Source of the DNA: Promethearchaeota archaeon
Lineage (GTDB): Archaea; Asgardarchaeota; Lokiarchaeia; Sigyniarchaeales; SOKP01
DNA: 64,000 nt
Assembly (NCBI GenBank): GCA_016839555.1
Contig: JAEOUA010000006.1
Location: 32,001-96,000, forward strand
Direction: 5' to 3'
Part shown: positions 6,352 through 11,082 of the stretch, one piece after another
Numbering within the stretch: the first letter of the stretch is position 1
How the letters are laid out: every line of letters begins with the position of its first letter
Notes under the pieces: model-generated
Database searches by the model: none
What the model was told of the DNA's origin: nothing
The model's input: only the letters and a program-made list of their open reading frames with translations
Position numbers and translations under genes: made by a program

Positions 6352-7488
6352 TCATATTTTTATCTCTAACAAATTATGAAATAATTTTTCTTCCACAATA
6401 CAAATTTTGTTTATTTCTTTTGAAAGCTCGGAAAGATCAACCATTTTTAAACAATCATCTTTAAAATTCTCTGCAGCTTTTTTTAATGTATTCGCAAATT
6501 CCGTCCATTTTTGAGCAGAATCACTGATCATTGGGATACAATTTTCAATAATTTGTATCTCCTCTTTAGTCCATGATTTTGGGCCTTGCGTAAATGTTGG
6601 AGTCTTAATGATTTCTTCTAAGAACGACTTATATAAATTTCGAAATAAAGCACCTCCCGTACCCCATTCCTCAATATAACCATAAATCAATTCAAAATTA
6701 AGTCCCGCAAGTAAATATTCTTTATGATTATAAGGATTTTTAATAATTTTGTTGAAAGTCTCATTCCAAGTTAGAATTTTCTCAGCAAAATTCTTTAATC
6801 CTTGTAAACCATTGTTGCTCATCGAAGGTCGTAGCATATGATTTACTACCTTTTGAATTGCCAACTTTACTCCTGCTGAGAATGGAGGATGTTTTCCATC
6901 TAGGCGAGGTTGCATTGAATATTGGGCATTTTTTGGGTGTAAAAAGGAAGTTCCATACTCTGAGCTTCTTGCTTTTTTTAGATTTTCTAATGGTATTGCT
7001 TGAAAACCCTTAAAATCGCTGTCTCCTACATACGCAATTCCCTGGGTTTCATCAAATCCACCAAGTGTAATAAAATGTCCACCAAAATGAATATTTTCTT
7101 TCAGTTCCATATAATCTAAATATGCTAAATCGACTTGAAGCATTAATGGAATATCTTGGAGTATGAGTTTTTTTGCTTCTTCCCACGCTTTCTCCGAACT
7201 TGTGAATGATTGTTTGCGAAGAGTGATCCCTAAAAGACGGCATGCCAAGGAGTTGGGATTAATAGAGTCTTGTTTCCCTCCTACAAAAAGAGGAAGATCA
7301 GTAGTATCACCTCCTCTAAAATTTGAAATTCCATCAAAAAACCCAAAACCGAGGGTGCCATCCAGTCCAAATGCCATTGCTTCGGTCATTGGGAATCCAT
7401 AAAATTCAAACATATCTCTTAATGAGGAAGATTCACAATGCACTCCAACACTATGCTTAAAATCCTCTATAATATATTTATCTTTCAT
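6352..7488 (-). CDS. BtrH N-terminal / DUF4872 papain-like protein
   Basis: GVHCESSSLR (Cys), HFGGHFI (His), VGDSD, GTGGALFRNLY. Confidence 0.8.
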   Translation of the reverse strand: MKDKYIIEDFKHSVGVHCESSSLRDMFEFYGFPMTEAMAFGLDGTLGFGFFDGISNFRGGDTTDLPLFVGGKQDSINPNSLACRLLGITLRKQSFTSSEKAWEEAKKLILQDIPLMLQVDLAYLDYMELKENIHFGGHFITLGGFDETQGIAYVGDSDFKGFQAIPLENLKKARSSEYGTSFLHPKNAQYSMQPRLDGKHPPFSAGVKLAIQKVVNHMLRPSMSNNGLQGLKNFAEKILTWNETFNKIIKNPYNHKEYLLAGLNFELIYGYIEEWGTGGALFRNLYKSFLEEIIKTPTFTQGPKSWTKEEIQIIENCIPMISDSAQKWTEFANTLKKAAENFKDDCLKMVDLSELSKEINKICIVEEKLFHNLLEIKI

Positions 7489-8093
7489 TTATATTCACTC
7501 ATATCTTCTTCTTTTTTTGAATAATCTTGTGGACCTATTTGTCCTTTTCCCTTTTTTACTTCTTCTAAAGCCCACCTTAAAAATTTTAAATCTGTTTTTA
7601 ATATTTCAATGGGATGAATGAATAATCCTGTTACATTTATCGGCATCTGAGAGTTTTCCTCAAGCATTTGTTCTAATTCCTTGATATGCGTTTTTATTTT
7701 TTGTATTGAATGAGAAATTGCCTCTATTTGCTGATCTTTGCTGAGGAGTGGAAGCATAGAAAACGCTACATAATAATTTTCATCATTTCTGCCGTAATAT
7801 TCTTTTAATACATTATATGTTTTGTTTTTTAAGATGTCAAGCCCATATGAAGTAATTCTATATACACGTCTTATTCTATTATCTACTTCTTCAGTATAGG
7901 ATTCCACCAATCCATCATCATCTAATAGGTTTAAATCACTATAGATCGAGGAAGTACCGATATTAGTCCAGTCTCTCATTCCTCGATCTTCAATCTTTTT
8001 ATCAAGGAGATACGCATGGCTGGGTTCTTCACAAATGAGGCCTAATACAATATATTGCCTATGTGTTAATTCGTAAGTCTTTTCGTTTGACAT
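7485..8093 (-). CDS. PadR-family transcriptional regulator
   Basis: VLGLI..PSHAY...IGTSSIYSDLNLL..DGLV..RRVYRITSYG; 4-bp overlap with the downstream gene. Confidence 0.88.
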   Translation of the reverse strand: MSNEKTYELTHRQYIVLGLICEEPSHAYLLDKKIEDRGMRDWTNIGTSSIYSDLNLLDDDGLVESYTEEVDNRIRRVYRITSYGLDILKNKTYNVLKEYYGRNDENYYVAFSMLPLLSKDQQIEAISHSIQKIKTHIKELEQMLEENSQMPINVTGLFIHPIEILKTDLKFLRWALEEVKKGKGQIGPQDYSKKEEDMSEYK

Positions 8094-8559
8094 TGGAGGA
8101 AAAGGTGATTTGAATTGTTATTCAATATTATATTATTATAATATTATATATTAAGAATATTATTGAGCGAGAGTATTTAAAATTATGTATTTTTTAAATT
8201 TTATTTCTATGTGATTTATTAATAACTATTTTAAGTAAATCATTTGAACCTATTTTTTATAAAATAAGAGGATATTTCTCAATATTAATAAAAATAACAA
8301 TTAAAAGATTGTATAGAAGTATTGTAGACTTCTTAATCCTTTAATTATTTGAAATAATATAAATAAATCTAGCTATAAAGAAATTAGAGTTTCTAAATGC
8401 CAAATATAACTAGCTATTAGAGTAATATTGATATATAGAAAGCTTTAAATCTTATAAATTCTGATTTTAATTCATTCTTTATGAATACTAAAAAATATAA
8501 AGATGATTTGTTATTTAAATAAATAAAAATATCAAAAAAACATACTGAGTGTTAACTAA

Positions 8560-10026
8560 ATGGTAGATATAAAATTACAGATATGGGATCCTCCAGGAGA
8601 ACGATATATGTCGTTAAGCTCACTGTATAAAGGATCTCATGGGGTCTTACTTGTTTTTGATTTATCAAATAAAGAGAGCTTTTATGATGCGAAATTGCAA
8701 GAAATAATTGAATTTGTTAAAGAGAATACCTCAGGCCCCATAATACTTATAGCAAATAAAGTAGATTTAGTAAGTTTGGATCAATCTGAGATAAAAAAAG
8801 AGGACATAGCAGCATTTCGATCAAAATATGATATATTAGAGTTTATTATTACTTCTGCAAAAACTGGTGAAAATATTGACTTAGCCTTTCAAACATTAAC
8901 TGATTTAATGGTTAAAGAAAAATTGGAACAAGAAAGTTTAGGTAAAACATTAATTTTTAAAGTTGCTATAGCTGGTATAAATAGTGTCGGAAAAACCTCG
9001 ATAATACAACGCTATATTAATAAATCTTTCCAGAAGGAGTATAAAATGACTATTGGAGTACAATTCTACACTAAAGATGTTAAATATGAACCCGATCTTA
9101 TCTCCGATCTTAGAGGGGAAAAACAATTAGAATCTATTTCAAGAAGGATTGAAACTGAAGAAGAACCAGAGGAATTACTTGAGAAAGTAGATTTTGACAG
9201 AGAAAAAAAAATAGCATCTGCTGTTGAAGAACTGAAAAAGAGAGACGCTATTAAAAAAGCTAGGAAAGCTGAGGAGGATAGAATAAGTTTAGCTAAAGAT
9301 CGAGAGAAAGTTAAAGAACAACTCCAAAAACCTCTTGCAGGAATGCCGAAAATGGCTCCCGCAATGCCAGTACCAGAAGGTGTCGCTAAAAAAGTTGAAA
9401 GAAAGGCGACCGTATTTTATAAAGAGCGAATGAATCCAATGAAATTGAATAGGATGGCAGTAATAATTTCAACAAAAGAATTATATGAAGCTTTAAAAAT
9501 TGAGAGAGAAGAGATTATACGTGCGGCTACTGGTAAAACTTATGAAATTGAAAAGGAGATTCCCATATTATATGTAGAGCCAATAATCCCTGGATGTATC
9601 TGTGTTCCTTCCACAGGAAAGCTGGATGCTAGAAAAGAGTATGATCATGAGCTATTTTTAATTACTCCATTAGAGGCGGGAGAAATTCCTGATGCCAGAG
9701 TTGATATTTATTATAAAGAGAAATTAATCGACTCTATTCCAACTCCAATAGAGGTTGTAAAAACAACTATGGTAAAAATCAGTTCCGCGTTCGCCATAAT
9801 TTTCCCTATAATAGGAGTGTTATTTGATCAGTGGTTAGATACCGTCTTTAAAATCATTATTCCCTTTTATGAGGCAATAGGAGGATTAGAAGGATTTATT
9901 GCGATTTTAACGGGAGCGTTTGCGCTAATGACTGCGATATTTTATTACTTTAGGAAACCCAAAGATGCGAAGCCTGCGGAGTCGAAGTCTCTCCCTGAAG
10001 TAGTAAGTGCGGTCTCTAAGGAGTAA
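8560..10026 (+). CDS. Circularly permuted Rab-like small GTPase with coiled coil, beta domain and two C-terminal TM helices
   Basis: Motif order LQIWDPPG (G3), ANKVDL (G4), TSAKTG (G5), FKVAIAGINSVGKTS (G1), YKMTIGVQF (G2); two C-terminal hydrophobic helices. Confidence 0.85.
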   Translation: MVDIKLQIWDPPGERYMSLSSLYKGSHGVLLVFDLSNKESFYDAKLQEIIEFVKENTSGPIILIANKVDLVSLDQSEIKKEDIAAFRSKYDILEFIITSAKTGENIDLAFQTLTDLMVKEKLEQESLGKTLIFKVAIAGINSVGKTSIIQRYINKSFQKEYKMTIGVQFYTKDVKYEPDLISDLRGEKQLESISRRIETEEEPEELLEKVDFDREKKIASAVEELKKRDAIKKARKAEEDRISLAKDREKVKEQLQKPLAGMPKMAPAMPVPEGVAKKVERKATVFYKERMNPMKLNRMAVIISTKELYEALKIEREEIIRAATGKTYEIEKEIPILYVEPIIPGCICVPSTGKLDARKEYDHELFLITPLEAGEIPDARVDIYYKEKLIDSIPTPIEVVKTTMVKISSAFAIIFPIIGVLFDQWLDTVFKIIIPFYEAIGGLEGFIAILTGAFALMTAIFYYFRKPKDAKPAESKSLPEVVSAVSKE

Positions 10027-10281: not shown

Positions 10282-11082
10282 TTATACCTTTCTCACGCTT
10301 TTTGGAGCGCGGGGGGGTACTCGATTATATTTCACGCTTGGATATCCGAGGGTAAATGCACAAGCAGTTGTTCCTGAAGCTCGAATCAGTCTTTTTATCT
10401 TATTGTTAATTTCTAGAGCCATTAAAGTCCATCCATGATAGCAAGTTCCTAATCCGAGTGACTGGGCTGCTAATCTCCCATAGGTAAGGATATTTCCAAT
10501 ATTTATGAAGTTCACGGTCATTGGCATGGTAGTATGGACTACTATGAGATGAGGGGCATTGAAAAATAAATTTTTACCTTCTTCTTCCAAATGTTTGAAT
10601 GTAGGCCCAAATCTAGCGTTAAAATTTGGATGACTCTCAATAGCTTCCCGAATGGCACTCGAAATTTCTTCTAATTTTTCAGAGTCAGAGATTACAGTGA
10701 AATTTTCTGATCTTACATTGGCTCCAGTAGGAGCATATTGCATTACATTCAATATTTTTTCAATCATGTCATCGGGAACTTTGTCTTTTTTATAACGTCG
10801 AATAACTCTAAGAGCACTAAGGAATTTAAAAAGGTCATTATATGATATAATACTTTCAAGATTTCTAATACCTTCAAATGTGAAGGTTTCACCCATATCT
10901 TCGTGAAGAATTGCATCCTCAGGGCACACAGAAATACAATGACCACATAATATACATCTATTATTTGGATCAGCATAGATTAATTTTCCCTCTTCATTTT
11001 CATGATAAAGAAAAGCGGGGCATTCTCGGACACATTCCATGCAACTTGTACATTTATCGTAATCTATTCCCAATATTGGCAT
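10282..11082 (-). CDS. Nitroreductase family protein with N-terminal 2x[4Fe-4S] ferredoxin domain
   Basis: CTSCMECVRECP and CILCGHCISVCP; RVIRRYK; APTGAN; LGLGTC; LGYP. Confidence 0.9.
   Translation of the reverse strand: MPILGIDYDKCTSCMECVRECPAFLYHENEEGKLIYADPNNRCILCGHCISVCPEDAILHEDMGETFTFEGIRNLESIISYNDLFKFLSALRVIRRYKKDKVPDDMIEKILNVMQYAPTGANVRSENFTVISDSEKLEEISSAIREAIESHPNFNARFGPTFKHLEEEGKNLFFNAPHLIVVHTTMPMTVNFINIGNILTYGRLAAQSLGLGTCYHGWTLMALEINNKIKRLIRASGTTACAFTLGYPSVKYNRVPPRAPKSVRKV

Follow-up and report, generated by a model that had tools for sequence, protein, structure and literature searches.

The product of the gene at 8560-10026 (+) of the window, the whole stretch of 64,000 nt of DNA that was analysed, is probably a Rab-like small GTPase, an integral membrane protein of Lokiarchaeia-type Asgard archaea whose G-domain is circularly permuted at the beta2/beta3 hairpin. 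The ORF comprises 488 aa plus the stop codon, and an in-frame TAA at 8557-8559 lies immediately 5' of its ATG. The preceding 466 bp are AT-rich and ORF-free, and no ORF able to supply a G1-G2 segment was present in them. The features of the gene, with the evidence in parentheses, are as follows.

8560..10026, + strand: whole gene, with permuted Rab-like G-domain, spacer, beta-sandwich, TM hairpin and tail
8560..8922, + strand: first part of the G-domain, spanning aa 1-121 from beta3 through alpha5 and holding G3, G4 and G5 (Pfam Ras, Ypt1 alignment, AlphaFold2 elements E2-9 to H106-123)
8929..8946, + strand: connector from alpha5 to beta1, aa ~124-129 (AlphaFold2 secondary structure)
8944..9096, + strand: second half of the G-domain, aa 129-179, with beta1, P-loop, alpha1, switch I and beta2 (Pfam Roc; alignment of Rab7 aa 5-56; AlphaFold2 elements E130-139, H145-153 and E167-176)
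9097..9381, + strand: charged low-complexity spacer, aa 180-274
9382..9759, + strand: conserved beta-sandwich, aa ~275-400, presumably cytoplasmic (alignments, AlphaFold2, fold searches)
9769..9954, + strand: two-helix membrane hairpin with helix 1 at aa ~404-433, an acidic loop and helix 2 at aa 443-465 (AlphaFold2, hydropathy)
9955..10023, + strand: conserved basic tail with a short terminal helix, presumably cytoplasmic (alignments, AlphaFold2)

Order of the G motifs and predicted fold

The motifs of the protein follow the order G3-G4-G5-G1-G2, and each element occurs once: G3 is DPPG (D10-G13, nt 8587-8598), G4 is NKVD (aa 66-69, nt 8755-8766), G5 is SAK (aa 99-101, nt 8854-8862), the P-loop (G1) is GINSVGKTS (aa 139-147, nt 8974-9000), and the switch-I Thr of G2, which reads TIGVQF, is T164 (nt 9049-9051). 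An earlier note on this DNA had read the motif positions, the order and the single copies from the letters, and ORF translation, Pfam and PDB alignments confirmed all three. Its expectation of two swapped profile matches was also borne out. Pfam Ras (PF00071) matched aa 3-117 on profile positions 47-160 (E 3.1e-29, 102 bits, cut-off 21.6) and Pfam Roc matched aa 134-175 on profile positions 1-42, the two stretches jointly covering positions 1-160 in swapped order. Rabs in the PDB aligned likewise as two swapped stretches (aa 4-144 with Ypt1 57-195, aa 132-176 with Ypt1 8-52), and the best 60 PDB sequence matches were all Rabs. Matches to the Rab motifs are only partial (IGVQF, KLQIWDPPG-E, LYKGSHG, LVFDLS); the RabF motifs that Pereira-Leal and Seabra reportedly listed in 2000 include IGVDF (RabF1) and KLQIWDTAGQE (RabF2), among others. 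A prenylatable C-terminal Cys (CC, CXC or CAAX) is absent, and the protein ends with ...VSAVSKE after two TM helices.

An AlphaFold2 model of the G-domain, built on a 15-sequence G-domain alignment, gave one compact domain (pLDDT 85.7, pTM 0.84) with a pLDDT of >90 in the P-loop region. Its six strands and five helices each occur once, in the order beta3, alpha2, beta4, alpha3, beta5, alpha4, beta6, alpha5, beta1, alpha1, beta2, the last spanning aa 167-176. These elements, together with Pfam and the Ypt1 alignment, support a cut in the beta2-beta3 hairpin, as had been proposed, and the model predicts that the permutant can fold as one G-domain. The pTM and pLDDT values suggest that beta1-alpha1-beta2 packs against the rest of the domain. 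In Foldseek, Rab27a, Sec4, Rab8, Rab11, KRAS and a Thorarchaeota Rab superposed on ~110-119 residues at 2.3-3 Å; this superposition covers the sequential half (aa ~1-115), since these aligners preserve sequence order and the second half is invisible to such a comparison. The connector, whose length ranges from 5 to 34 aa across the family, joins alpha5 to beta1, that is, the native C and N termini of the Ras fold.

Conservation of the permuted order in Asgard archaea

A word-indexed search of JGI, ENA, NCBI and Logan assemblies retrieved 17 close relatives with 39-84% identity, which, where named, were Lokiarchaeota or Promethearchaeota. The relatives start at beta3 with M-V-x-I-K-L, except for the cut or degenerate P0012, P0017 and P0018. 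We split the G-domain into HMM A (beta3 to alpha5) and HMM B (beta1 to beta2), with HMM C for the C-terminal module. Among 197 retrieved proteins, 24 had the order A-B-C, five had A-B, and 33 carried C with other N-terminal parts. None of the 197 had the order B-A-C, that is, a canonical GTPase fused to the C module. In the 3.74-Mb genome of the window (12 contigs), the order A-B-C occurs in a single gene, against 34 canonical genes with the order B-A. The C module was present in 32 of 301 species-level Asgard genomes, and the permuted domain precedes it in three GTDB families: that of the window (G019, G117), a second (G165, with degenerate motifs in its copy) and a third (G211).

The gene could in principle be a truncated or mis-assembled fragment of a tandem double GTPase, and tandem B-A-B-A proteins do align contiguously with the query over their junction. 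The two tandem proteins with a traceable source are, however, eukaryotic (plant and Anaeramoeba), and they are thus not evident precursors. The stop codon directly 5' of the ATG is preceded by no G1-G2 coding sequence, and the protein contains no second G3-G5 downstream. Moreover, about 30 homologues from independent JGI, ENA, NCBI and Logan assemblies have a common order and begin at the same residue, which argues that the protein is neither a truncated tandem nor a misassembly. The chance of such an artefact is negligible in our judgement: the upstream stop and the homologues refute it for practical purposes.

We built a tree of 148 rows from re-permuted and canonical domains. In the free tree, the permuted domains fell in four starred clades (SH-aLRT >=95), the deep branches being poorly resolved, and clades II-IV grouped with the genome's own canonical GTPases in a starred (97) clade of 98 rows. 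In an 80-row subset, a constrained tree that kept the 29 permuted domains together exceeded the tree of a free quick search by 14.3 lnL, and monophyly of these 29 domains was not rejected (AU p 0.67). Taken together with the shared C module, this AU result is most simply explained by one origin.

The same genome contains adjacent pairs of canonical small-GTPase genes at C1:127587-129495, C1:336243-337834, C6:228044-229382 and C4:70574-72590. Such locally duplicated pairs are raw material for a duplication-and-truncation route to permutation.

Active site and presumed nucleotide cycle

The catalytic Gln is deleted in the protein: Ypt1 Q67 falls in a one-residue gap (DPPG-ER versus DTAGQER), and the alignment also shows that switch II is shortened relative to Ypt1. 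This deletion, and the degenerate G3 in much of the family, had been overlooked in the earlier note. The window's protein belongs to clade I, in which the P-loop GxxxxGKT, NKxD, SAK and D10 do not vary and conservation of the switch-I Thr is at least 90%; the G3 Gly is replaced in about one third of the members of this clade (P0009, P0010, P0013-15). Clade II (P0016, P0053-55, P0058, P0072, P0098, P0103, P0108) retains a canonical DLGGQ G3, and clade III (P0070, P0080) has lost the P-loop Lys. In P0018/L008 (L008:181-2148 (+)), nearly all G motifs are degenerate, and L008 too is without the P-loop Lys.

These motifs suggest that the G-domain of the window's protein binds GTP/GDP-Mg and that its intrinsic hydrolysis would be weak or slow, because the catalytic Gln is deleted while G1, G4 and G5 are intact. 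Slow hydrolysis would call for a trans-acting GAP or would prolong the GTP-bound state. Alternatively, the protein could be a pseudo-GTPase or a constitutively GTP-bound scaffold that keeps the fold and serves, without cycling, as a static membrane adaptor. The deleted Gln, the shortened switch II and the replaced G3 Gly speak for such a role, as do the loss of the P-loop Lys in P0070 and P0080 and the degenerate motifs of P0018. Since the G3 Gly is replaced in part of clade I and whole subclades lack the P-loop Lys, some members would be pseudo-GTPases, and the window's protein may not cycle either. On the other hand, GxxxxGKT, NKxD, SAK, D10 and the switch-I Thr are 90-100% conserved in the window's clade, a sign that nucleotide and Mg binding is under selection. 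Nor is a missing cis Gln at odds with hydrolysis that a GAP assists, as happens in Rap and in Rabs served by TBC GAPs. We therefore regard a non-cycling adaptor as rather unlikely for the window's protein and favour a slow-hydrolysing GTPase.

Permuted subclades without the P-loop Lys, whose P-loops read for instance GSSEVGTT or GDQRVGCT, and those with hardly any G motif left still show the family's fold order and carry the membrane module. By their motifs, the Lys-less or degenerate subclades look like pseudo-GTPase derivatives.

The C-terminal membrane module

Conservation is highest in the last 220 aa of the protein, at 68% mean column identity. In the AlphaFold2 model (pLDDT 78), aa ~278-400 form a beta-sandwich, aa 404-433 and 443-465 are two long helices, and the chain ends in a short helix; hydropathy agrees with the two hydrophobic helices; the beta domain and two TM anchors that the earlier note had placed here are thus predicted by the model as well. 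The short acidic loop joining the TM helices bears a GGLEG motif, and the tail (RKPKDAKPxESK...) has invariant P467, D469, A470 and P472. The pair of TM helices has basic residues on its N- and C-terminal flanks and an acidic connecting loop, from which we infer an N-in/C-in hairpin. With this topology, the G-domain, spacer, beta-sandwich and tail would all be cytoplasmic.

Conserved motifs of the beta-sandwich are an invariant CxC (C346, C348), ERKATVFY and MNP. The two cysteines form part of an invariant PGCxCxP motif, at C346-I-C348 (9595-9603), and D356, E360, Y361 and D362 are nearly invariant. This pattern hints at a metal or ligand site near the membrane.

The beta-sandwich was marginally closer to the ZU5 domain, which occurs in ankyrin, UNC5 and the NLRP1 FIIND, than to other folds of its kind. 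The best ZU5 rows reached Z 8.7-9.2 with 116-125 residues aligned and 6-13% identity, only ~1-2 Z above the generic Ig-like and MG-domain rows, a margin that does not decide between them; generic Ig-like, PapD and macroglobulin MG matches had Z of about 7-8. Pfam gave no ZU5, VWA or macroglobulin-like match anywhere in the protein. In the PDB, a Foldseek search with the C-terminal module found only weak, generic beta-sandwiches, among them TRAP-beta, PapD-like and MG domains. The unit of beta-sandwich and two TM helices matches no Pfam family, and Pfam searches of nine other Asgard C-module proteins yielded nothing beyond a sub-threshold Band_7. An ESM Atlas feature search with the module gave no usable match; the Atlas has look-alike modules in proteins of Promethearchaeota and, among bacteria, in proteins that carry TIR, FHA, caspase, kinase, EAD11 or TCAD9 domains. 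In other C-module proteins, among them P0090, P0091, P0101, P0102, P0106, P0115 and P0150, the module is preceded by MshEN, FHA/YscD, HATPase_c, TPR and ubiquitin-like domains. The module (aa 275-488) looks like a mobile, promiscuous membrane-anchoring unit.

The window's genome has 35 Ras-like ORFs in which both halves are present, and the permuted one alone carries C-terminal TM helices. Permuted relatives that lack the C module end in a single tail TM, as does P0103, or in a basic tail, as does P0108. P0103 and P0108 fall into clade II, which also holds P0016 and other C-module proteins; this suggests that the anchor was exchanged while the permuted domain and spacer were kept.

A probable flexible leash between G-domain and membrane

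The spacer at aa 180-274 consists of 95 aa of low complexity, 47% of them charged (D/E/K/R); it occupies the place where the earlier note had read a coiled coil. Across the family it has 29-341 aa (median 110), of which 32-66% are charged and up to 23% are Pro. The earlier note had suggested that the protein is a nucleotide-driven lever, in which the motion of switch I and beta2 is passed mechanically to the beta-sandwich and TM helices and changes the membrane part. Beta2, which follows switch I, does end the G-domain and run on into the rest of the protein, and a cut in this turn between beta2 and beta3 might, in principle, allow a register shift of beta2 like that of the Arf interswitch toggle. 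However, beta2 enters a segment of very variable length that is charged, partly Pro-rich and poorly conserved, and such a segment cannot transmit a defined movement; in addition, relatives with the permuted domain use quite different anchors. A lever is accordingly improbable, and the composition and length range of the spacer favour a flexible leash.

We propose that the protein is a permanently membrane-tethered switch on this leash, whose GTP form would recruit partners to the membrane. By analogy, the spacer and TM anchor may stand in for the hypervariable tail and prenyl anchor of eukaryotic Rabs. The permutation would shift the exit of the chain to the tip of the interswitch hairpin, the site where the membrane tether is attached. 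Such a protein would illustrate how the closest archaeal relatives of eukaryotes may attach Rab-like switches to membranes without prenylation.

The interswitch of Arf shifts its register with the nucleotide state. A comparable toggle of the freed beta2, without the constraint of the hairpin, might let GTP alter the exit of the tether and so regulate the beta-sandwich, the TM module or the tail. We think it very unlikely that the protein works in this way. If it did, it would be a self-contained small-GTPase switch built into the membrane, the first of its kind in a prokaryote, and might represent an archaeal precursor of membrane-delimited Rab/Arf signalling.

Gene neighbourhood

The permuted GTPase gene stands alone between long AT-rich spacers. 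Upstream and divergent from it, at 6352-8093 (-), are two overlapping genes, one for a PadR-family regulator of 202 aa and the other for a BtrH_N/DUF4872 protein of 378 aa; the same pair, at L036 1825-3583, also lies upstream of the orthologue P0004. The convergent gene downstream, at 10282-11082 (-), encodes 266 aa with two 4Fe-4S ferredoxin-type Cys clusters at the N-terminus, and the remainder of its product appears nitroreductase-like by eye. No conserved gene neighbourhood was found beyond the close relatives; the neighbours of more distant orthologues are unrelated and no pathway is indicated.

Relation to eukaryotic cpRAS

Anand et al. are said to have argued in 2006 that a GTPase with the order G3-G4-G5-G1-G2 could not fold. 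To our knowledge, the eukaryotic cpRAS is the single counter-example to that argument, and it remains uncharacterised. The archaeal proteins are a second, probably independent and well conserved case, which would mean that the Ras fold tolerates a beta2/beta3 cut repeatedly. The small, expressible N-terminal domain (aa 1-182) offers a way to the first structure and biochemistry of this topology.

The earlier note knew of no described family with this order. Elias & Novotny (2008, Biol Direct 3:21, PMC2430557), however, described exactly this order for cpRAS, a domain opened between strands 2 and 3, and the claim of a new topology therefore fails. We found no permuted Ras-superfamily GTPase of Asgard archaea in the open-access literature, and the gene is an apparently undescribed archaeal variant. 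PMC2430557 assigns cpRAS to the RAS family, describes a 'TIE' G2 and VWA (Sec23/24 trunk) or macroglobulin-like partners, and regards the domain as eukaryote-specific.

The archaeal and eukaryotic domains might descend from one permutation event. Their motif order and cut site are identical, CPRas was possibly present in LECA according to a 2026 paper, and no group is closer to eukaryotes than the Asgard archaea. Against common descent stand the RAS-family assignment, 'TIE' G2 and VWA/macroglobulin partners of cpRAS in PMC2430557, compared with the Rab signatures (KLQIWD, TIGVQF) and the all-Rab PDB matches of the archaeal domain, and the grouping of clades II-IV with the genome's own canonical GTPases in the 98-row clade. 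A search for cpRAS-type relatives with aa 1-182 returned fish Rab44-like proteins only, and one with the clade-II domain of P0055 returned Asgard permuted proteins and canonical GTPases but no cpRAS; neither search turned up a eukaryotic permuted protein that matches contiguously, which is weak evidence in the same direction. Common descent is thus very improbable. Because the archaeal domain is Rab-like rather than Ras-like and has other partner domains, the archaeal permutation probably arose separately from cpRAS, a distinction drawn from family signatures and from the published description. We propose that it would have arisen once, within Asgard Rab-like GTPases.

Comparison with known GTPases

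cpRAS is alike in its permuted order, its beta2/beta3 cut, the short loop between alpha5 and beta1, and its embedding in a larger protein. It differs in being a Ras-family domain ('TIE' G2) in VWA or macroglobulin fusions, whereas the domain described here is Rab-like (TIGVQF), archaeal and devoid of the catalytic Gln, and lies at the extreme N-terminus, followed by spacer, beta-sandwich and TM hairpin.

The best sequence and structure matches are the canonical and Asgard Rabs (Ypt1, Rab1, Rab7, Rab11; Thorarchaeota Rab, PDB 7ezd). Common to both are the Rab-type beta3/switch II and switch I motifs, GxxxxGKT, NKxD and SAK, and a membrane attachment via a flexible C-terminal extension. Unlike Rabs, the protein is permuted, lacks a prenylatable Cys and the catalytic Gln, and has a permanent TM in place of the lipid anchor, which implies that no GDI-type extraction takes place.

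Stand-alone or tail-anchored permuted Rab-like GTPases of other Asgard genomes, such as P0103 and P0108, share the permuted domain and have a single tail TM or a basic tail, and those of clade II a DLGGQ G3; the protein of the window has instead the module of beta-sandwich and TM hairpin, and a DPPG without Gln. The YlqF/YawG proteins (YRG: RbgA, YqeH, RsgA) are likewise natural circular permutations that fold as one P-loop G-domain. Their order is G4-G5-G1-G2-G3, with the cut after beta3, whereas the protein described here has G3 at the N-terminus, before G4; and they are TRAFAC ribosome-assembly GTPases, neither Ras-like nor membrane proteins.
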